From Octopus vulgaris (Eukaryota): a stretch of 64,000 nt of DNA. Positions within the stretch are counted from its first letter, which is position 1, and every line of letters starts with the position of its first letter. Both the position numbers and the translations under genes were made by a program. Below the pieces are notes generated by a model that was given only the letters and a program-made list of their open reading frames with translations, searched no databases and was not told the DNA's origin. Positions 5,094-51,214 of this stretch are shown here, in pieces. The DNA is taken from positions 1,364,001 through 1,428,000 of the forward strand of contig OX597817.1 of assembly GCA_951406725.2 (NCBI GenBank). Direction: 5' to 3'.

Positions 5094-5980
5094 AGTGAGG
5101 GTGTGGTTGTTACTTTCTGTTGCTTCCTTTCTGTTTCTTATCACCACATTCTCCCTCTTTGTTTCTCTCTCACTTTCCCGCTCTTTTACTCTTCCTTTCT
5201 TTCGGACTCTCTCTCGCTTTCTCTTACTCTCTATCTTTCTCTATCTATCTCTCTCCCACTTATAAAAAACAAAAGATCTTGAGTAAGTTGAGAAAGAAAA
5301 ATATTTTAAAAGATCAATCATAAATATCAGGCAGTGACAACGGAAAACACACTTGCCTTTTGTACGTGCCACTGTTTGAGCGATTAAAAATAAGGAAAAA
5401 AGAATTTCTTTGTTAAATTTAGTACTTATTTTGGGAATTTTTCGACGATTGACTATACAAATGAAAGCTCTAAACACGGGCTACATGCAGCTGTAAATTT
5501 CTTTCAGGAAAAATGAAAACTGTAAACAATAAAAATTAAAAGGCAAAAATTCGTAAAAATGAGAAATTTTTTCATCTTCAAAAGTTTTGCCTAATTTTTA
5601 AAATTTCGAACCCCAATTAAAAATCTGCTTCCACTTTACCATGTTGAAAATTTGATTGAAATCGGGCAAAAGGTGTCCAATCTAGACCTCCAAGTGTCCC
5701 CAATTAAAATTTAATATAAATTGTTCCCCAGAAAGTTTTTATTTCACGCTGGTTACTTGATAAAATTATTAAAGTAGTTTTATGCTTAATTTTGTAAAAT
5801 ATGTGGCTACTCGCTTTACTGCTTAGTATAGTTACGCGTTCGCCACCACAACCTCATTTACGCTTAGCAGCGCTTCCTGTTTCTGTTTTCACTGTCCTGT
5901 TTGTGTTACCAATATTGACCCTCCGTAAAATCTCAAATTTTATTTAATTTGCTTTGCGGTAGCAACTGTTTTATCGAATG

Positions 5981-6043
5981 CGCATGTTGTTGTTAAATGC
6001 TCGAAATACGAGACTAGAAAAATAGCCAACAACTGACGAAGCG
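5981..6043 (+). ncRNA. Rearranged hammerhead-like motif, copy A (degenerate; G at the cleavage position)
   Basis: CGCAT-G-TTGTTG..CTC-GAAA-TACG..CAACAA-CTGACGA-A-GCG; homologous to 21075-21136 and 50824-50884. Confidence 0.55.
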
Positions 6044-6175
6044 TCGTTTTTTATGTTGTTAGTTTTGTTTTCTATTTGTGTCTTTCGTTGTTCGAAAGAA
6101 TCGTTCACATTCCATGTACTCGTGATTCGTATTTATTGTTGTTGTACACGTTTCATGACGCCCTGTCCCCACATA

Positions 6176-6230
<55 letters not shown>

Positions 6231-6373
6231 ATCTGCATATATAAATTATTTATATTGAACGTTTGTTTTTTCCCCTTTTTTCGCTATCCTTTTTTTTCTA
6301 TTTTTTTCATACGATAATTTTTTTTTTTTGTTTTTTTTTGTTTTTTCGAACGTTTTTTTTTCGCTATCCCATC

Positions 6374-6826
6374 ATGCCGGATCCTAGGTCCTACCTCCTC
6401 ACCCTCCATCACCGTTTGAAGGATCATCTACGTTCGCTTCCTGTATATTGCCTTCAGCCGTCCGTTAATCTCTCTCTACTTCTTTTTAAAAAAACCCGCT
6501 TCTCTAGCCATGTCTCTTTCCTAAGCCGCTGCCTACATCACCGACTCATCCCTAAAGGTTTCCGCCTCCACTTCCACCCTGCTCTCCACTCGGATTCTTC
6601 CATCTTACCCATACTCCGCACCACATCTTACCGCCTTATGCGGGCCACCATTCGCTCCAATCTCTCCAAACTACATGCCATCAACCGCCTTCTTCCTCCT
6701 GCTTTCTCCACCTTCTTCTCCTCTCTGCCGCCTCTCTATGCTCCAAACACGCTACGCTTCATTATCCATTTGAATCAACTCTTCCATCAATTTCTTTCTG
6801 ATACCATCGCCATGTTGATTCGTTAG
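6374..6826 (+). pseudogene. N-terminal fragment of a Penelope-like element ORF (truncated before RT)
   Basis: ATG at 6374. HVSFLSRCLHHRLIPKGFRL resembles the H..FL..C....IPKG motif of PLE N-terminal domains. Flanked by two HHR-like modules. Confidence 0.65.
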
Positions 6827-6880
6827 CTACTGCACGCATTTTTTTCTCTCCTTCTTTCTGTGTTTTTCTCTCTCTGTGTA

Positions 6881-6918
6881 TCTTTCTGTTGAAGAGCGTA
6901 GGCTCGAAACGTTAAAGA
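6881..6918 (+). ncRNA. Minimal type I hammerhead-like motif (A6->U variant)
   Basis: TCTTT-CTGTTGA-A-GAGC(GTAG)GCTC-GAAA-CG-TT-AAAGA; same architecture as 57625-57660. Confidence 0.6.
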
Positions 6919-7941
6919 CTTGTTTTATTTATATTTCCTGAGCGCCATACTAATACAATTGTTTGTTTGTTTTCCACCTGCCTTCGTCTTTTGTTTATTT
7001 TCATAAAGCTTCCCGTTATATATATATATATATATATACGTATATATCCGTATGTCTGATTGTCTGTCCGTCTGTCTGTCTGTCTGTCTGCATGTATGAG
7101 TGTGTGTATGCGTGTATGTATTTAAGTATTCGAAAGATGTACCACGTAGTATTTTATCCAACGCCATAATGATTCTATCGGTCTGCCACCCTTAAGTGTG
7201 ATTATGAAAACGATTATTAACAGCTGTGTATAGTAACCTATGGCTCGACGAGGGAGCGTACCGAAGATTGGAAAAAACCCCACACAAAGTACGTGGACAG
7301 GCTCACCCTTCCTCAGTTGCCGACCAAAAATCATGACAATTTTGAGGCCTTATTGATAGTATTGTTTAATTAGGTGGCATCAGCTATCTGCTGGACTATG
7401 TATGGCACACCGAAACAAGAGGGAAAGGTGGGGGAGGGTCACTAAATAGAACGGTAAACCAGACGAGTAACTAAGAGAATGGAAAACTATATAAAACAGA
7501 AAAGTAATATATACGTTTTGATAAAATCAAACATTTAGATAAAGTGTAACAGAATAGCGTTAAACTGATGCGTTAATAAATGTTTATTATAATTGAAAAA
7601 TTGTTAATTGGAACAACTACTATTTGGATAAATTGTTTTCGACAGACTGCTTTAGATATTTGTATTTCAATCATCTATTTATGATCAACTGAACATTTGC
7701 CTACACAATATAGTATACTAGCTATAAATGTTTATTATAAGTTTCCCATGTTTTCAAATTAGGAAACAAGAACATTCCTTAATTCATCATTAATATTTCC
7801 AAATGTCCACGCTTTACTCTTCTACATAACGTGCTTAGTGTCTGGTACCAAACGGATTGATGTCTTTGATATTAACACAGGATTTGTATTTTTGATCACG
7901 TTTTTCAAAGCCTGTTTTCTAATAATTCTTCTCATATATAA

Positions 7942-19778: not shown

Positions 19779-21074
19779 AGAGCAATAGTAATTACCACTG
19801 TTCGAGCATGAACTGAAGAGTAGCAGAGAAATAATTATCTGGGCGGAAATGTAGGCAGGCAGAGAGATTACTGGAAATAAATATATAAATAAACATGTCA
19901 ATAAATAAAGCAAAAGTTGTCGGTTGGCTTGGTAAACAAAAGCAAATAGAAAATTGTAGTAGAGAAGTATAATCTAAACAAACAGAAACATACGATCAAG
20001 TAGCCATGACAGCAAACAGGAAATTGAAGGCGGCCATTGCTGTAAGAGTCATATTTGGCCGACTGAATATTATTATTAGTTTTTTTTTGTTGTTTTCTTG
20101 TCTTTGCATCGTGGTTTGTAATTTTGTTTATCATCGCATCGCTGTCGTTGCGCTGTTGTTAAGGACTTCAGTTAAGTTCTTGATTATATTTTACTCTCTT
20201 AACAGAGACCCGGTATGAGCATCCCAATGTTATAGCAGACTCTACAACGTTGAAGCGTCTAACGTACGCGTTCGACAAGAAATTGTTATTTACAACTATA
20301 CACACATACTCATACACAAATATATACAGATATAAACATACACTCTCGTACGTGCAGACACTCTCACAGGCACACATATTCTTCAGTTACACGAAATGTA
20401 TTGGCATCAAACAGATACTAGATAATGCACAAATTTTACCATTCTACTCCACGTTCCATTTCTGACTTTACTCTACAAGAGACTCGTTTTCGATTCACAA
20501 GATTCCTTGAATACAATGTTTGCCAGTAATTTTTGTACTGTTATACTATTGGAATTAGCAGTAAACATCGCATTAATGGAATCATGTAGACCAGGCAGTA
20601 GTCTCACGCAAATATCTCTTCCCATGAGGAATTTTACACTTTGTGACTAACAAGTCACTCGTGAATATTCTAGCGCGAGTGCTGTCTACAACAGTGAGTT
20701 AGTTATACGCTCACCATTTCTTTAAAAATAAAATGTCCATGGATACTTAGCCATGGATCCGTGGATGCTTGATTATGGATAAAGTGCTGCATAGGTAACA
20801 TATATGACCTACTAATAGCTAGATTGGTTCTGCTGTACTTAATGGATGCTAGTTACCATAGGATGGATTGAGGTTAAGTTTCCCACAGAACTTTAGTAAA
20901 TTTAATTACAGCTTTCATTAGTTTCGTATCTTCAAATGGTAATTTTCATTCGTAGTTCATTATATTTTGGCCTGTTGGGACAAAATGCTAAGCAGTATTT
21001 GCCCGTCGTTGCGTTCCGAGTTCAAATTATACCGAGGTCGATTTTGCCTTTCATACTTCCGGAGTCTTTGAAGA

Positions 21075-21136
21075 CTCATATTGTCGTTGAATGCTCGAAA
21101 TGAGGAGTAGATAGACAGCCGACAACTGACGAAGGG
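21075..21136 (+). ncRNA. Rearranged (non-circularly permuted) hammerhead ribozyme candidate, copy B
   Basis: CTCAT-A^TTGTCG..CTC-GAAA-TGAG..CGACAA-CTGACGA-A-GGG: stem III CTCAT/ATGAG, stem I TTGTCG/CGACAA, stem II CTC/GGG. Confidence 0.65.
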
Positions 21137-21291
21137 TCTTTTCTCTTTGTTTACTTGTCATGTTTTCCGTTCTTTTCTCTCGTTGTTTACGTAATTCATG
21201 TTTGCACAGTTGGTGATGTCCTGTACCCATATATGCACGCACACACACACATGCATGCATACATACATACATACATACATACATACATACA

Positions 21292-21381
<90 letters not shown>

Positions 21382-37455: not shown

Positions 37456-37662
37456 ACCAGAATGAATATTTAACATTCTACTATTTCATTTTATTTTATT
37501 CAATTATAATATATTATCTTATAATATATCATTATAAGATTGTAAATAAAACGTGAAAATCAGACAAGGTTGGAATTCTTTTTATTAATATATTCTTCTA
37601 TACACAATCACACACACCCATATATATATATATATCTATATTCCTATTGTGTATATGCCAAC

Positions 37663-38955
37663 ATGTCTGGAAAGCAACAAACAAAATTAACAGAATCCGA
37701 AAGAATTCTAATGGAAATTTCATCGAAATTATCAACACTCATCACGATGATTGACACACAATCCTCTATTTTAAAGGAAATAGAAAAACAGTCTACAGAC
37801 GGAAAACTTGGAAATGAACACATAAACTCTGAAATTAAGAATTTAGCTGAAATGATACCAACAATTATAAAATCTACAAGAGAAAGCCTACCACAACCTC
37901 CTTGGATGTCAGAAATAAACGAAAGAAATCTGGAAAAAGAGGCACACCGAAAAAGAGAAGAGATACAGAAGACATGGAAAAAACTCCTTAACATAAGAAA
38001 ACAAAACTTCTGGAAGGCATATAAATGCGAAAAATATGCTGAAATACATTCGAAATGGATATCTTTAGCGGCACCCATACTTCCTCGGAAGTACCTAATT
38101 AAAGAAATTGCAGGAGAACCAGAGGAAGAAACTAAACTTCGATGGGACCTTAGTTTGATAAAATTCAGGACCGACATCTCCATTACCCTGTCTAAACAAT
38201 CCCGCTACAAAGCCAAATACGAAGCTATCGATGATCAAATCAGAGATGAAATATCCAAACTAACGACCGGCAATATAGCAGAAAAAATGCGAGAACTATG
38301 GATCAGAGATATCTCAAAAGAAGAAAGCAGATCAAGAAAGTTTTGGCAGCGGAAACAATTATTTCTCGACAAATATGCTACAAATTACGGTAAAGACACC
38401 AGAACTCCGAGAAATAGCATTAAAAGTGGACAACCTCACCAACGCAACATACACCAGAACACGTGGCAACATGAACACCCGTTTCACCACGAATCAAAGA
38501 CGAACTACGGTAAGAACTCTTCCCATTTTGTATGCAAACACCCTAATGCACACAACATGAACAAAAAGCACAAACAAAATAGATATTGTTTTGAACAGAC
38601 CATTAGCAGTAGAAATAACAGGAGATCATTTTCAAGACCTCAACAGAGATTACCCACAAGAAACTGGACAAAAAACCGATCTAGATCTAGAAGTAAACCC
38701 AGATCATTTCTCCAGGTGGTTAAAAACAATGCTAACAAGAAATTGAAAAGTAGCATACATAATACCAAAAACAAGACAGAAAACATAACGAAACCAAGTA
38801 AAGTACCACAACCAAAACGCAAAATTCATCAAGCAAACATCAACAGGAATATAAATCATAACCAGAAAAAAATCCATTTTTTTACGTCAGGACAACAAAC
38901 ACCGGAGAAAGAAAAAATCCAAGAGGAAACATACCCCAAACAACTGAACGTATAG
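37663..38955 (+). CDS. PLE ORF1 / N-terminal region (helical charged N-half, basic low-complexity C-half)
   Basis: First ATG at 37663 (GCCAACATG); open for ~430 codons inside the element. Confidence 0.75.
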   Translation: MSGKQQTKLTESERILMEISSKLSTLITMIDTQSSILKEIEKQSTDGKLGNEHINSEIKNLAEMIPTIIKSTRESLPQPPWMSEINERNLEKEAHRKREEIQKTWKKLLNIRKQNFWKAYKCEKYAEIHSKWISLAAPILPRKYLIKEIAGEPEEETKLRWDLSLIKFRTDISITLSKQSRYKAKYEAIDDQIRDEISKLTTGNIAEKMRELWIRDISKEESRSRKFWQRKQLFLDKYATNYGKDTRTPRNSIKSGQPHQRNIHQNTWQHEHPFHHESKTNYGKNSSHFVCKHPNAHNMNKKHKQNRYCFEQTISSRNNRRSFSRPQQRLPTRNWTKNRSRSRSKPRSFLQVVKNNANKKLKSSIHNTKNKTENITKPSKVPQPKRKIHQANINRNINHNQKKIHFFTSGQQTPEKEKIQEETYPKQLNV

Positions 38956-40901
38956 ATCCTAAAATAATTAATTTATCAAAAAGAGATCTTGACAATGATG
39001 AAATCCAACTTCTGTCAAAAGGACTGAAATTCACACCTACACCAACAGCCAACCACCAAGAATTAAAGGAGGATATCCAAAAATTCTGTCGAAAATTACG
39101 ACTTGTAGAATTCTTCGCTAACAAAAGTAATGAGATTGATGAATCCCTAGTAAGGAATAAATCAAATTTCACCCCACCAAAAGGAAGAAATAACTACCTT
39201 GACCAATACATTGATATCCTGTCTAAATTTCCCCTTAGACGCAATACCAATGTTAGGCCAAACATTAGCAAATCAGAGATGTCTGCATGTAAACGTATAC
39301 AAAACGATCAAACAATAATAATTAAACAAGCAGATAAAGGTGGTGCAATTGTTATTATGGATACCGAATACTATAAGGATTTGGTTGAAGACCAACTGAA
39401 GGATACAACCTTCTATTGTGAAATACCCGCAAATATAGACCATCACATCATGAAAAAGATCAACAACCTGATTTCAACACACCACAACTCACTTACGGAT
39501 AATGAAAAAGACTACATCACCAATTTTGAACCAAAACCCAGCAACTTCTACGGCTTACCAAAAATACACAAATCAAAAAACATTCAACAGGCAGTAAAAG
39601 AACAAGAAAGTGAGTACATAAAATTATTACATCCAAAAGACCTAAAACTTAGACCTATTATAGCTGGTCCAGCATGCCCTACACACCGTCTAAGCAATTT
39701 TATTGACATTGTTTTGAAACCACTATGTACTTACATACCAAGTTTCATCAGGGATGACATCGACTTCCTGTCCCATCTTCCCAAAACAACAGAAACAAAT
39801 TCAGTTTTGCTAAGTTTTGATGTGGTAAGCCTCTACACCAATATTCCACACGATTTAGGAATAAAGGCGATTAAATACTGGTTAGAAAAACATAGAGAAG
39901 TGATTCCCAGCAGATTCACAGTGCCATTTATATTAGACACAGTCAAACTTATTCTAGAAAATAACACATTCTTCTTCAATGGAAAGAATTACATCCAAAT
40001 TAGAGGCACGGCGATGGGAACGAGGTTTGCTCCCGTTTACGCCAACTCTGTAATGGGATACTTAGAAGAACAACTCTACCAAGAGGTGGAGGTAAACTAT
40101 GGCACTGGATTTAGAAAGTATATTGAAAAGGCATGGAAGAGATACCTAGACGACTGTTTCATAATCTGGACAGAATCTCTAAATACTCTGGAAGAGTTCA
40201 ATATCCTCCTGAACAACCTACACCCATCTCTCAAATTTACAAAGGAGATGAGTAGTACCAAATTACCATTCCTGGATATAATGGTAATTAAAAAAGACAC
40301 CACCATCACCACAGATATATACTATAAACACACAGACACACATCAATACCTAAATTTTAAGTCGTGCCATCCACCACATACAAAACGTAACATCCCATAC
40401 TGCCTAGCCAGAAGAATTTGTACTATTGTAGAAGATGCAAATATCAGGAACAAACGCCTAATAGAACTAAGAGAATTTTTGCTCAAACAAAAATACCCAT
40501 CTCTACTTATAGAAAATGGCATACAGCGGGCTATAAAAATACCTATACAACAACTTAGGACAACCCAAGGAAGAGGAAAACAAGAACAAGTCATACCATT
40601 CATAGTGACACACAACCCATGTCACCAGAATATCTTCAACATTGCCAAAGCAAACCTACCAATCATTGCCCAAAGTAATGAATTAAAAGACATAATCAAG
40701 GATCGAGCTATGGTGCTTAGTAAAAGACAGCCTAAAAACTTGAAAACATTACTAACAAAGGCAAAATTTGACCTCAGCAACAAAGACCAAACATTCACGG
40801 TATCTAAATGCAATGATAGCCGATGTGGCACATGCCAATTCATACATACCGGTCAATATATAAACACAAAAACCGGAAAATATTCACAAACGCGAATATG
40901 A
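38862..40901 (+). CDS. PLE reverse transcriptase (frame open from 38862; first ATG only at 39279)
   Basis: IINLS..LLSKGLKF.P, ADKGG, FYGLPKIHK, LRPII, SFDVVSLYTNIP, QIRGTAMG, RYLDD, LPFLDI, YLNFKSCHP, CNDSRCGTC. Confidence 0.95.
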   Translation, partial: PEKNPFFYVRTTNTGERKNPRGNIPQTTERIDPKIINLSKRDLDNDEIQLLSKGLKFTPTPTANHQELKEDIQKFCRKLRLVEFFANKSNEIDESLVRNKSNFTPPKGRNNYLDQYIDILSKFPLRRNTNVRPNISKSEMSACKRIQNDQTIIIKQADKGGAIVIMDTEYYKDLVEDQLKDTTFYCEIPANIDHHIMKKINNLISTHHNSLTDNEKDYITNFEPKPSNFYGLPKIHKSKNIQQAVKEQESEYIKLLHPKDLKLRPIIAGPACPTHRLSNFIDIVLKPLCTYIPSFIRDDIDFLSHLPKTTETNSVLLSFDVVSLYTNIPHDLGIKAIKYWLEKHREVIPSRFTVPFILDTVKLILENNTFFFNGKNYIQIRGTAMGTRFAPVYANSVMGYLEEQLYQEVEVNYGTGFRKYIEKAWKRYLDDCFIIWTESLNTLEEFNILLNNLHPSLKFTKEMSSTKLPFLDIMVIKKDTTITTDIYYKHTDTHQYLNFKSCHPPHTKRNIPYCLARRICTIVEDANIRNKRLIELREFLLKQKYPSLLIENGIQRAIKIPIQQLRTTQGRGKQEQVIPFIVTHNPCHQNIFNIAKANLPIIAQSNELKDIIKDRAMVLSKRQPKNLKTLLTKAKFDLSNKDQTFTVSKCNDSRCGTCQFIHTGQYINTKTGKYSQTRI

Positions 40902-41188
40902 ACTGCAAAAGCAGAAATTTAATTTACTGCATCAAATGCCCAAATTGTGAAGAAATATATGTAGGTCAGACGGGAAACGCACTATTAGAACGCTCACGTG
41001 TACACCGGCAACAGATTAGAGACCCAGAGGTCCGTCAGATACCTTTGAGTAACCACCTAGCAACATGTGGTCGGAAAATATATATAATATTTCCATTCTA
41101 CAAATTACACAGCCCAAGTGAAATCGAGAGGAAAATCAGAGAAAAGAATTTTATTGATAAATTCGAACCCAAGCTAAATAAGCAATAG
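40880..41188 (+). CDS. GIY-YIG endonuclease domain of the PLE (out of frame with RT by 1 nt)
   Basis: NLIYCIKCPNCEEIYVGQTG..RSRVH..LSNH..RKIREK.FI..LN. One extra A in GGAAAA at ~40877-40880 would restore the fusion. Confidence 0.9.
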   Translation: MFTNANMNCKSRNLIYCIKCPNCEEIYVGQTGNALLERSRVHRQQIRDPEVRQIPLSNHLATCGRKIYIIFPFYKLHSPSEIERKIREKNFIDKFEPKLNKQ

Positions 41189-41377
41189 TAATAATACTTA
41201 GAGGTATTACTTCCACTGCTACGACCATGACCACTAACAACAACAACAATACTAAAGGTGATCAAGACGAAGATAGCAGGAAAATTATCTTATTTAGGGT
41301 TAAAAGTTCTATTGCCACCACCATCACCACTAGCAACAATAATTAAGGTGCTGACAATGATGATGATGACAATTGAA

Positions 41378-41852
41378 ATATAAAAATATAAAAATCTCTG
41401 ACAAAGGATATTTACAACATTTCTAAAAATAACCCAACAATTGCTGCTTCGGCCAGGGTCAAGATACAGGACTCTTGACCTGTCCAACAAAGCGTGATGC
41501 CTAAACCAATCAGCTCAACCAACCAATCAGCTTAAGTAATTGAGTGATACTACACACTGATTGGTCAGAATACAGTTTGCAAAACCTAGCACTCTGGAGC
41601 CTACCCAGCTGTATTTATAGCACAGAATCACTCATCTTGCTACAGTCAAAAATTGTGAAGCATGACTGTCAACACTACTACATGAACCCGAAGATTGCAG
41701 AATTCAATGCATGAAAGTACTAGTTCAACCAGAATGAATATTTAACATTCTACTATTTCATTTTATTTTATTCAATTATAATATATTATCTTATAATATA
41801 TCATTATAAGATTGTAAATAAAACGTGAAAATCAGACAAGGTTGGAATTCTT

Positions 41853-41858
<6 letters not shown>
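41378..41858 (+). repeat. 3' pseudo-LTR with HHR copy at 41683-41727 and AATAAA
   Basis: Direct repeat of 37106-37586, followed by (TA)n. Confidence 0.95.
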
Positions 41859-41890
<32 letters not shown>

Positions 41891-43248
41891 ATCATACATA
41901 CATACATATTTGCACGTTGCTTAAAGTCAAACTATAGAGAAAGGAACGCTCATTACATTTTGTAGAGGATATGATTTTTTTAAAATTAAGAGCGAAAACT
42001 GTTTCTTGCGGTTCGAGTTTCACGCCTCGGCGATCCTCAGGTGAAACCCGTAATTTAGCGGTCCATCAAGAAGGAACTGGTAGAATATGCACCAGGCTTT
42101 AAAAATACAAGTAGTAGGGTAGTTTCGTTTAACTAAATATTTTCCAGGCGGTGCCCCAGCATGGCCGCACTCTACTGACAGAAACAAGTAACAGATAAAA
42201 GATAATGAAGATCACAGTGACGTGAAAATAGCAGCTGTTAACTTAGAAACGTATTCCCTGTTTGTCTGAAAATATATTTATGCGGGAGCGTATAGATATA
42301 TATGAATGTATACACACAAACACACACATACACATTCACTAACACACACACATACACATATTTAAACGATCTCAATTAATGGGACTCATTGTGTTCATCA
42401 GCAAAACGTAACTATTTATTCTTTCCCAATTGAGCCATGTCAGTATTGATTTCCAGCCTTTCAATAAGGCTACATATCTGGAGTGAGATTAGAACCGATT
42501 AATCGACACCAGTTCTTCACTGGTGTATTACTTTATCTTCAGCGAAAGATATGTAAAGCTTTTCTCGACGAGGTTACAAATCAGACTGTAAAGGGGCATA
42601 ATTAATACCGCAAGGGACTTCATCCGACGCTCTAACCATCCTGACATACAGGTATAAGTAATATATTCCTACTATTGTGGTTTTCAACAATTTTTCTACC
42701 TATGAACCCTTTTGATTTCAATTTTACTCGGTTGGACCCTCTTAGCTATTTGATGGCTTGAAATGGGTCCTTAAGCGTCATATGGACCGCGACTGAAAAC
42801 CATTGATCGACTATAAATGAATATAACACTAAGCTATATTTTTAAGTGCTTGTCCATGAAACTAAAATGATTACACTACTCTGTTGATAAAGTCAGTTAG
42901 TATACATTTTCTATGCGTTTATATAATCAATTTTATATATAAACATATTGCTGCAACGTTTGATATGAAGTGTATTTGAAACGTATATTTCATATTTCAA
43001 CATCACAACATGTTTGAGGTTTATGCATGCAGACACATATTCACACGTATTCACAAGAATTAACGCAAGCAAACAAAACCACATGCATATAAATAGGGCC
43101 GGCCTGGGGTTGTTCGTGCAAAGGTTACGCTGACTTTCGGCACACTTCTAAGTATAATTTTTGCTTAAATTTACACATGAATAAAACTTGCGAATGAGGA
43201 ATAAAAGGCTTATTATAATTCATTAAATATAGAAATAATGCAATTATT

Positions 43249-47191: not shown

Positions 47192-47228
<37 letters not shown>

Positions 47229-47352
47229 ACAACAATTGAGGAATGGCCTTAATAGGCCATTCGACCCACTAGAAAGAGCAGCCATGACTCAAACCGCCAA
47301 GTAGTAGTAATTCAGAAATTAGAGAAAATTTAAAAACATTTACCCTAAATCA

Positions 47353-47451
47353 TCTTTAGACAATGCATTGTTTCGGTGTTTTTAATGGCAAACCAGCTTA
47401 ATTAAATTAAATTAAGTCAGTCCACCAAAGGCTACACCTCATCGGTAAAGA
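47353..47451 (-). ncRNA. Type I hammerhead ribozyme (CCGAUGA core)
   Basis: Reverse complement: TCTTTA-CCGATGA-GGTGT...ACACC-GAAA-CAATGCATTG-TC^TAAAGA. Confidence 0.8.
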
Positions 47452-48037
47452 AGCCAGGTGAGACGGATATAAACGAGGCATCTGTATCTATGCCCTAGGA
47501 ATATCTGCCCTAAAAATTTCAAAACCATCGTACTCGCGCCAACTTATCAGCAGTAAATATAAACTGCTGATTCAATTTCAGAATTAGTCAGAAAATCATC
47601 AATTAATCAATATAGGGTAGCAAAAAATTCAATAGAAATTTATCGCCACCAGCGGTCTAGTGAGAAAGAGAAAATAGTCAAAGACTATATATATAAATTC
47701 AACAACAATTGAGGAATGGCCTTAATAGGCCATTCGACCCACTAGAAAGAGCAGCCAGGACTATTAAGGCCATTCCTCAATTGTTGTTGAATTTATATAT
47801 ATAGTCTTTGACTATTTTCTCTTTCTCACTAGACCGCTGGTGGCGATAAATTTCTATTGAATTTTTTGCTACCCTATATTGATTAATTGATGATTTTCTG
47901 ACTAATTCTGAAATTGAATCAGCAGTTTATATTTACTGCTGATAAGTTGGCGCGAGTACGATGGTTTTGAAAATTTTAGGGCAGATATTCCTAGGGCATA
48001 GCTACAGATGCCTCGTCTATATCCGTCTCACCTGGCT

Positions 48038-48135
48038 TCTTTACCGATGAGGTGTAGCCTTTGGTGGACTGACTTAATTTAATTTAATTAAGCTGGTTTG
48101 CCATTAAAAAACCGAAACAATGCATTGTCTAAAGA
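48038..48135 (+). ncRNA. Type I hammerhead ribozyme (CCGAUGA core)
   Basis: TCTTTA-CCGATGA-GGT..long stem II..ACC-GAAA-CAATGCATTG-TC^TAAAGA. Confidence 0.8.
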
Positions 48136-48354
48136 TGATTTAGGGTAAACGTTTTTAAATTTTCTCTAATTTCTGAATTACTACTACTTGGCGGTTTGAG
48201 TCCTGGCTGCTCTTTCTAGTGGGTCGAATGGCCTATTAAGGCCATCCCTCAATTGTTGTTGAATTTATATATATAGTCTTTGACTATTTTCTCTTTCTCA
48301 CAAGACCGCTGGTGGCGATAAATTTCTATTGAATTTTTTGCTACCCTATATTGA

Positions 48355-48395
<41 letters not shown>

Positions 48396-48402
<7 letters not shown>

Positions 48403-49113
48403 ACAAAATAAGGGCAAAAGAAAAATTCTATTGCCAAATATGCCGAAAGCAAGACAAAATTGTCAATAACCACTATAATTTATGCGTCTCGAAACAAACC
48501 GATAGAAATTTCTAAAAAATCCGTTATTACCGTATTGGTCCCAATTTCGGGGTTAATTCATAAGAATTTTCCCCTCTTCAGCGATAAATACGTGAGATAT
48601 AAGTGGAATACTTACTCAAACCCATGGAAAAAGCAAGCACTAAGTCATGGGCAGACCTAAGTACCCCAAATATATCCAAAATAGAAAATCTTCGGCACAT
48701 CTCGAGATACGTGTGATTCGAACTAGAAACTTTCACAGAGTGAGAGAATCCGGAAGTGAACACTATTTAATTTATAACTAATGTAGGACAAAATATTTTT
48801 CGGGAAAAAAATTTTATCAATGGCCATGCTTGCTTTTTTAGCTGAAGAGGGGAACATTCTTATGAATTAACCCCGAAATTGGGACCAATACGGTAATAAC
48901 GGATTTTTTAGAAATTTCTATCGGTTTGTTTCGAGACGCATAAATTATAGTGGTTATTGACAATTTTGTCTTGCTTTCGGCATATTTGGCAATAGAATTT
49001 TTCTTTTGCCCTTATTTTGTAAATTATTCGTAAATTTGACCTTTAAAGGTATTTTTTGATATGCTGGCCATTGATAAAATTTTTTTCCCGAAAAAAATTT
49101 TATCCTACATCAG

Positions 49114-50188: not shown

Positions 50189-50823
50189 TAAAAGGCTATG
50201 GTCAGGTGGGGTGTGAAGCTGGAATATTTCCAGGGAAGCACTCGACCCGAATAATGGGCTCTCAACTGTCGGGTTCCAGGCGAAAGCTGGAATTCTTCAG
50301 GTGTAGAAAATCACGACGACTACACTGTTAAATCGGTTTCCCGAAGAGTAAATAATCCAATGAGATGGTACAGAAACAAATGTAACTTATAATTAAAGAA
50401 ATAATTTTCCTTATCTTCTTTTCATTGGGTTATATCCTTCTGTAATTCCCTTTTCCTCATCCCCCCTTCACCGTTTTCTATCTGTCCCTCTCCCTCCCCT
50501 CTTTCTCTTTTCTCTCTTTCTCGCTCTCTCGTTGCTCACATGTGACCATCGTCCATCTTTCTTTTCCTCACGTGACCATCTTTCTTTTCCTGCACAATCG
50601 TTTAAACGAACGGACATGTTTTTCTCTCTTTCTCTCTCTTCTATGTTTTCTCTTTTCAAAAAATGTTTCTCCCATCGTTCACTATTTTCCTCTCGGTCTG
50701 GTCTTCTGATCCTCCGTGTTTCTTTTCGTTCGGCTTCCTGTAATTGTTTCCCCGCCCAACTTTGACCCTCCATAAATCCTAAATGTTATTTTAGAATTTA
50801 TGGGCGCAACTGTCTTTGAAGAA

Positions 50824-50884
50824 TCATATTGTCGCTGAATGCTCGAAATGAGGAGTAGACACACAGCTGACAACTGAAGAAGAG
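50824..50884 (+). ncRNA. Rearranged hammerhead candidate, copy C
   Basis: TCAT-A^TTGTCGCTG..CTC-GAAA-TGA..CAGCTGACAA-CTGAAGA-A-GAG. Confidence 0.65.
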
Positions 50885-51036
50885 ACTTTTCTTTGTGTTA
50901 ACTTGCCCTTCTTTCCAGTGTTTCTCGTTATTTACATATTCCACTCATTTTTCCCTAGGTTGTTTACGTATTTCATATTATTTGTAACGTTGGTGACGTC
51001 CTGTATCCATATACATACATACATACATACATACAT

Positions 51037-51092
<56 letters not shown>

Positions 51093-51128
51093 TGATATTA
51101 TTTAGTATTTTAAATATATATATATGTA

Positions 51129-51214
<86 letters not shown>

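Follow-up and report, generated by a model that had tools for sequence, protein, structure and literature searches.

Copy A of a dispersed repeat in Octopus vulgaris carries the conserved blocks of a hammerhead ribozyme in rearranged order, with a hairpin immediately upstream. The locus raises the question of whether these letters belong to an RNA structure maintained by selection, to which hammerhead class such a structure would belong, and whether it cuts. The window (the whole 64,000-nt stretch of DNA that was analysed) holds three copies of the repeat, A, B, and C (Table 1). In the reading to which we give a probability of roughly 0.7, copy A is a decayed Penelope-type repeat, and its intact relatives are predicted to form a hammerhead whose core has its break between A9 and G10.1 and which likely cuts after position 17. 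All of the copy A strings quoted by the initial annotation are found on the forward strand at 5917-6045; the reference letters CTCAT and CGACAA, which it had given for copies B and C alike, are those of copy B, and copy C has ATCAT and TGACAA instead.

Table 1. Positions of the repeat copies in the window and of the predicted ribozyme parts of copy A
Feature	Position	Strand	Remarks
Copy A	5832..6255	+	5'-truncated non-coding repeat; ends in its own TA-rich tail; 87% identical over ~420 nt with A copies of greater length
Helix Px, 5' strand GACCCT	5917..5922	+	predicted partner 6040-6045; 49/50 Watson-Crick cells, little variation
Upstream hairpin	5923..5959	+	abuts Px and stem II with zero spare bases; arms CCGTAAA (5923-5929) and TTTGCGG (5953-5959)
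Stem II, 5' strand (10.1-10.5)	5960..5964	+	TAGCA in copy A, GAGCA in the subfamily; partner 5998-6002
Helix P0, 5' strand, and GAA side of the internal loop	5966..5980	+	from pairing comparison among subfamilies
Stem III strand ending in U16.1, CGCAT	5981..5985	+	47/50 Watson-Crick, p = 0.0003; private T to C at 5983
Position 17, G	5986	+	the cut is predicted 3' of this base; each of the 10 subfamily majorities has A or C
Stem I strand after the predicted cut, TTGTTG	5987..5992	+	50/50 Watson-Crick, p = 0.0003
Stem II 3' strand (5998-6002), GAAA (G12-A15.1, 6003-6006), and stem III second strand	5998..6010	+	
AGUAG/ACUAG side of the internal loop and P0 3' strand	6011..6025	+	TAG and the next A invariant in 11 aligned copies
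Stem I second strand CAACAA (6027-6032) and CUGANGA (C3-A9; CTGACGA, 6033-6039)	6027..6039	+	
Helix Px, 3' strand	6040..6045	+	AGCGTC in copy A, AGGGTC in the subfamily
Copy B, subfamily BC	21064..21381	+	core ~21080-21140; starts 17 nt 5' of the predicted cut
Copy C, subfamily BC	50505..51178	+	ribozyme region 50764-50886 (about 50760-50890)

The repeat family and its copies in the window

Copy A reads as a decayed member of a non-coding repeat. The repeat unit spans 700-840 nt (706-723 nt in subfamily A, 819-836 nt in D and D3) and begins anew behind a TA-rich tail; copies start and finish in (TA)n. Most are single, dispersed, and 5'-truncated, some carry inverted 5' pieces, and partial tandems also occur. 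The longest open reading frame (ORF) of the subfamily D unit is 68 aa, the fetched flank upstream of 189 candidate copies is free of ORFs, and the unit shares no homology beyond simple repeats with Naiad 3' UTRs or with the young Penelope-like element (PLE) beside copy A. A search for an autonomous partner among upstream ORFs, by homology, and at Naiad reverse transcriptase (RT) loci found none.

The pattern running from GAAA to CUGANGA has 5,764 + 210 exact matches in the genome (i.e., at least 5,974 core-intact copies), and the reversed-pattern control has no exact genome match. A genome search with copy A returned 2,385 candidates, 40 of which were scored, at ~91% identity. Scaled from 7 copies in 76 evenly spaced 10-kb stretches (0.76 Mb), the family is estimated at ~26,000 copies per 2.8-Gb genome (range, 10,000-53,000). 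Across the fetched loci (1.94 Mb, an enriched sample), a descriptor of the full structure had 81 distinct hits, against 0 in two shuffles; copies A, B, and C of the window all fail it. The 274 distinct copies gathered include 266 that were assigned to 11 subfamilies by hand-made signatures. Subfamily F (one full copy) was left out, giving 10 majority sequences (full copies: A 36, BC 64, BC2 3, D 31, D2a 7, D2b 7, D3 7, G 12, E 23, and H 5) that are 48-95% identical in the ribozyme region. Copies of subfamily D are 97-99% identical, and by sequence this subfamily is young. Among the sequencing runs listed for the element, none is on record as RNA; it is present in contigs of four runs guessed to be RNA, and these contigs are uninformative on ends and expression.

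Copies B and C belong to one common subfamily, other than that of copy A. Copy B, which starts at -17 relative to the predicted cut, is without Px, the hairpin, and the 5' strand of stem II, and copy C has mismatches in stems II, III, and Px. Copy A differs from its own subfamily at 9 of ~130 positions. Among 37 subfamily A copies, position 17 is A in 30, G in 4, and C in 3, which makes G17 a minority state; the C of copy A at 5983 is likewise rare (T 32, C 2, and 3 unscored), and G stands at 10.1 in 29 of the 32 scored copies, where copy A has U. The initial annotation had judged copy A inactive from G17, and with the change of G10.1 to U and the mismatches in stem III and Px added, these four lesions suggest that it is probably dead.

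Donor-like GTAAG sites follow the TA tail of the unit in three loci (L207 1400-2620, L007, and L030), and the subfamily A unit also contains a long run of pyrimidines that closes with TAG, which is what a retained PLE intron would be expected to show. Among the run contigs compared, none showed the unit spliced.

Helices of the repeat and their order

Pairing was scored in the 10 majorities and compared with a null in which the tree was taken from the 3' flank and the changes counted in each column were kept and scattered over its branches, with transition bias (3,000 simulations). Stem I, for which the initial annotation had proposed covariation from TTGTCG/CGACAA to TTGTTG/CAACAA, is Watson-Crick paired in 50 of 50 cells and exceeds this tree-aware null (p = 0.0003). 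Copy A alone would be weak evidence because its difference from copies B and C in stem I lies at a CpG on both sides; this worry is removed because the deeper sample of subfamilies also covaries. The supposed extension of stem I (TTA/TAG) does not behave as a helix, with 8 of 30 cells Watson-Crick paired (p = 0.85). Its TAG is a minority variant in subfamily A (CAG 25, TAG 5, and 7 unscored among 37 copies), and the CAG that had been assigned to stem I pairs with an upstream CTG in a different helix, P0.

Stem III is compensated as proposed (47 of 50 cells; p = 0.0003), not, however, as one compensated pair and one mismatch: CGTAT/ATACG in subfamily A against CTCAT/ATGAG in BC amounts to two compensated pairs, and the mismatch is private decay of copy A. 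The base of the upstream hairpin also covaries (46 of 50 cells, 4 extra pair types, p = 0.006 and 0.002), with two compensated pairs between CCGCAAA/TTTGCGG in subfamily A and CCATAAA/TTTATGG in BC. Stems I and III and the hairpin base each exceed the tree-aware null across the 10 subfamily majorities. The CUGANGA and GAAA blocks are conserved in the 10 majorities while the stems turn over; the exception is G12A in the majority of subfamily E, which stems from the search query, itself a carrier of G12A. The tree-aware test and the pair counts support the earlier suggestion that RNA structure is under selection across subfamilies.

The strand before GAAA pairs with an upstream strand to form stem II (49 of 50 Watson-Crick cells, three double changes, p = 0.0003), as GAGCA/TGCTC in A and BC and as GAAGG/CCTTC in D, E, G, and H. 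The three double changes share one branch (A/BC versus the rest) and therefore represent a single episode. Helix Px joins the bases after CUGANGA to the CCCT run directly 5' of the hairpin (49 of 50 cells; p = 0.10, because Px barely varies inside the family). Px, the hairpin, and stem II are contiguous, with zero spare bases in 10 of 10 subfamilies, so the hairpin is not the separate feature that the initial annotation had described. Helix P0, which continues stem III across an internal loop, is CTGTTTT/AAAACAG in A, CTGTCT/AGACAG in BC, and GTTTC/GAAAC in D; its register was chosen post hoc and it stood outside the tree test. The registers of stem II, Px, and P0 are best matches, and the subfamilies were drawn by hand.

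A pair count on 11 real copies, which took in only 3 stem III pairs, found 97.4% of 233 cells paired and double changes in 12 of 22 pairs, versus 38-50% paired in slid-register controls. In a shuffle control, pair types exceed those observed in 500 of 500 shuffles. With the strand before GAAA paired upstream and the bases after CUGANGA paired on the 5' side of the hairpin, the break in the core falls between A9 and G10.1; hence the hairpin would be part of the ribozyme, and the fold would not be of type SGC. Comparison among the subfamilies establishes the helices as well as the sequence of their strands: the ribozyme region runs from the 5' strand of Px through the hairpin, the 5' strand of stem II, P0, the internal loop, and stem III to the cut site; stem I, a short linker, the 3' strand of stem II, and GAAA follow, and then come the second strand of stem III, the internal loop and P0 again, the second strand of stem I, CUGANGA, and finally the 3' strand of Px. 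The internal loop of the repeat fits either a kink-turn or a loop E, and that of Naiad_Ovul, read by eye, fits a kink-turn; the geometry would imply a kink at this loop.

An unlikely alternative is that the repeat is a type-SGC hammerhead, in which the partner of the strand before GAAA is the G run after CUGANGA and one extra A is bulged after A9, the hairpin being a separate element and the upstream pairing an inactive or storage fold. The block order (cut site, GAAA, and CUGANGA) and the ~3-nt linker fit this arrangement, four pairs (two of them G-U) are possible in 9 of 10 subfamilies with one position alternating between G-U and C-G, and an extra A is found at the same spot in the canonical PLE hammerhead of the window and in CChMVd. 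Against this, stem II in the SGC register is Watson-Crick paired in 19 of 50 cells, with no extra Watson-Crick pair type (p = 0.65), and in the 11 copies it is paired at 76.4% versus 96.4% upstream. The type-SGC pairing is also 6-15 kcal/mol weaker than the upstream wiring (isolated-duplex energies of -10 to -15 versus -19 to -25 for upstream stem II plus Px, 10 of 10 subfamilies), and Naiad_Ovul, by eye, allows 2 pairs in the SGC register versus 6 Watson-Crick pairs upstream. Type SGC had been the initial reading of the analysis and was dropped on the upstream stem II pairing in Naiad_Obim and the 10-subfamily covariation.

Relation to known hammerhead classes

The split-core fold, with its core opened between A9 and G10.1, keeps the conserved core letters (C3-A9, G12-A14, A15.1-U16.1, and H17) in 10 of 10 majorities, where N17 is A or C; copy A departs from them at position 17. 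Three stems with covariation support (I, upstream II, and III) meet at this core. They cross, and the circularly permuted, non-crossing order of types I, II, and III is therefore absent. The order of type SGC is present, yet its intact Block C, with a stem II strand directly after CUGANGA, is not (19 of 50 cells versus 49 of 50 upstream). The predicted fold is thus that of a hammerhead by sequence and stems, and it lacks what defines types I-III as well as what defines type SGC. It is strongly supported as a structure by subfamily comparison and predicted as a catalyst. Rfam gave no hit at gathering score on 5 loci and no relevant one among the 150 of 194 window matches listed, and the literature searched (mostly open-access, and the main texts only of Eckert et al. 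and the 2026 preprint) holds no description of a split-core fold. In viral contigs, 18 pattern matches were seen, none with stems by eye, and these were treated as chance.

In the accessible sections of Eckert et al. (2023; PMC10085705), type SGC (HRIMA-1 and variants) resembles the repeat in block order, crossing stems, the short linker from stem I to stem II, and conserved core letters. The two differ in that stem II of type SGC lies directly after CUGANGA, whereas the repeat has the first strand of stem II upstream and bridges the gap with two additional helices. Type SGC is described there from outside the genomes of known organisms, whereas the split-core repeat is genomic and animal. The same sections assume the CUGANGA block (Block C) to be unbreakable.

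Animal non-LTR retrozymes, as portrayed in the portions available of bioRxiv 10.64898/2026.07.22.740005 and PMC7229834, are likewise non-coding, ribozyme-bearing, and tandem, and likely move by Penelope-like enzymes. The repeat shares their non-coding tandem unit with one ribozyme each, most copies being single. Retrozymes, however, carry type I hammerheads, which the repeat does not have; it carries the split-core fold in units of 700-840 nt that are mostly dispersed and 5'-truncated. An extra base at A9/G10.1 and a position near the 3' end of the element are shared with the minimal type I hammerheads of PLE pseudo-LTRs and with the CChMVd (+) hammerhead; in the parts available of PMC4209133, PMC3705267, and PMC1636495 this base is tolerated in CChMVd (+) and usual in PLE minimal hammerheads. 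Those ribozymes have canonical strand order and a short, dimer-dependent stem III, unlike the repeat, and one base at A9/G10.1 where the repeat has a break closed by two helices. The portion available of Perreault et al. (2011) reports core insertions of one or two bases only.

The same layout in Naiad elements

The 3' UTRs of Naiad_Obim and Naiad_Ovul, read by eye, have the layout of the repeat ~75 nt from their 3' ends. In the supplement of Craig et al. (2021; PMC8557442), as far as available, the strand before GAAA of Naiad_Obim pairs with an upstream strand. Four more records there share the layout by eye (three that end ahead of the headers Aacu, Anas, and Movir, plus one other), with unrelated stems of 5-10 pairs, and one further record has a looser version. 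The accessible text of the same paper reports no canonical hammerhead in Naiads, describes cephalopod Naiads as long inactive, and lists 8 Naiads, including Naiad_Ovul, as 'HHR_half_core', with the half core 35-50 nt from the other half; PLEs show (TA)n ends and inverted 5' pieces. The octopus genome holds near-identical copies of the Naiad_Ovul 3' end. A Naiad-type motif has 378 matches in it (control, 0); of the 7 loci with a Naiad RT motif, 3 have the Naiad-type motif following at a distance of 1.3-1.5 kb; Naiad RT copies are few, and all frames are broken.

The repeat resembles these Naiads, as represented in the available part of PMC8557442, in its 3'-end ribozyme layout, (TA)n targets, and tandem and inverted copies, including partial tandems and inverted 5' pieces. 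It differs from them in lacking an ORF (the Naiad type has an N-terminal GIY-YIG and a C-terminal RT), in showing no detectable homology to the Naiad 3' UTR, and in having a young subfamily, D.

Probable footprints of cleavage and copying

Two sets of 5' ends were compared with the predicted cut. The first comprises 93 copies for which a motif 145 nt downstream was the sole selection criterion; 40 of them extend past -75 (i.e., read through the predicted cut). The other 53 ends fall 3 at -74..-30, 0 at -29..0, 17 at +1..+15, and 7 at +16..+30, with 1-7 ends per 15 nt beyond +30 (p = 2e-6 versus uniform). In the second set (123 copies chosen by the core, partly overlapping the first), 27 of 48 ends lie at -2..+12. 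The 5' ends peak at +5..+7, not at +1, and 4 of 48 are within 1 nt of the cut (p = 0.08); the offset of 5-7 nt may reflect microhomology joining with TA. Copies starting at the cut cannot rebuild the fold because the upstream strands are missing, as they are from copy B. On the 3' side, none of 30 copies chosen by an upstream motif ends at the cut, and 28 reach +223 or more (the tail), which implies that copying starts inside the RNA. In a lizard PLE, copying starts inside the RNA in vitro. For a PLE other than the octopus repeat, no RNA reads ended at the hammerhead cut and the main template was uncut RNA (PMC11167929).

Whole units also occur head to tail, with tandem periods of 819, 832, and 836 nt. 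A three-unit array of subfamily D3 (L513-L515; G000:C1:18815098-18819781) has a period of 832 nt and lies between (TA)n runs; two of its units are identical over 600 of 600 nt, and the cut site is passed three times. Four of 8 tandem pairs rank among closest relatives. The two units in L206/L207 differ, which is not what a single circle would give, and tandem-pair identity, with a mixed outcome over the 8 pairs, was given up as a test for circles.

Fold-back copies, with an inverted piece attached inside the ribozyme, were seen in L085, L234, L241, L277, and L303; for L241 and L277 this junction lies exactly at the predicted cut.

The 40 read-through copies and the peak 5-7 nt past the cut are also what speaks for a fold that is selected without cutting, or that cuts too slowly, acting as a binding or stop signal for RT, with the 5' ends marking transcription start or stalling; hammerhead cleavage was dispensable for the lizard PLE in vitro (PMC11167929). 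We consider this improbable: CUGANGA, GAAA, U16.1, and a non-G base at 17 are kept in the 10 majorities while the stems turn over (save the query-derived G12A of E), a stall at the remaining hairpin predicts ends near -27, where there are none, and in L340/L341 the cut is where two Naiad-type copies begin. That the compensations reflect mutation bias (CpG decay) and shared descent with no structural selection, as the CpG change on both sides of stem I, the private decay behind several copy A features, and the relatedness of the rows would allow, is very improbable, because a null with tree, per-column changes, and transition bias is still exceeded, changes in stems II and III include transversions and non-CpG sites, unrelated Naiad sequences retain the same helices, and a control helix (the stem I extension) fails the same test.

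Neighbouring elements in the window

An internally deleted copy of a young PLE is inserted in the tail of copy A (6256-7016, forward strand) and joined to it by a 7-nt microhomology. Full copies of this element encode ~1,076 aa with RT plus GIY-YIG at the C terminus, many at 99% identity. It carries a canonical minimal type I hammerhead (about 6880-6920, forward strand) with an extra A after A9, and in the window and in L106 this hammerhead reads CUGUUGA (A6 replaced by U). The ORF at 6374 was rejected as the parent element of the repeat, since it belongs to this separate PLE with its own canonical hammerhead; the young PLE is a candidate enzyme donor for the young subfamilies.

A second, diverged PLE lies at 37546-41900 (forward strand), with a 469-aa open frame, a 679-aa RT frame, and a GIY-YIG-like end; a loose hammerhead pattern has no match in its 3' region. 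Nested inverted repeats occupy 47226-49027, with 353-nt arms that are 99% complementary across a 26-nt gap and 193-nt arms that are 98% complementary. Copy B adjoins a SINE-like fragment (about 20985-21063) containing GTTCAAAT, which we take to be B-box-like; ARAGORN found no tRNA in the window.

A model for cutting and copying

In the split-core hammerhead proposed here, Px and the hairpin would stack and hold A9 next to G10.1, and the internal loop would bend stem III-P0 back toward the far ends of stems I and II. The split core may be a one-base A9/G10.1 bulge that has grown into a junction of two stacked helices. A Penelope-type RT would act in trans, nick (TA)n, and prime copying inside the TA-rich tail of the RNA. 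On a cut template, run-off at the cut would leave short, dead copies, whereas read-through on an uncut or re-ligated template would yield whole units and tandem arrays. After cleavage, Px, II, P0, and III would still tie the products together, and unit-length RNA could re-ligate to a circle, a step that would be favoured because these four helices bridge the cut.

We think it probable that this topology, a four-helix junction, lies outside the six permutations of 2023, that it is the missing Naiad ribozyme across animal phyla as well as that of an active octopus family, and that circles are copied. If true, the repeat would provide a fourth break point in the best-studied ribozyme, one held unbreakable by the 2023 permutation scheme; it would explain hammerheads in Naiads that descriptor searches missed and answer the 'half core' note of Craig et al. 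Standard hammerhead searches would miss all such copies, an estimated 10,000-53,000 in the genome. The split core puts to the test both the function of a hammerhead core without the A9-G10.1 link and Penelope-type copying from circles.
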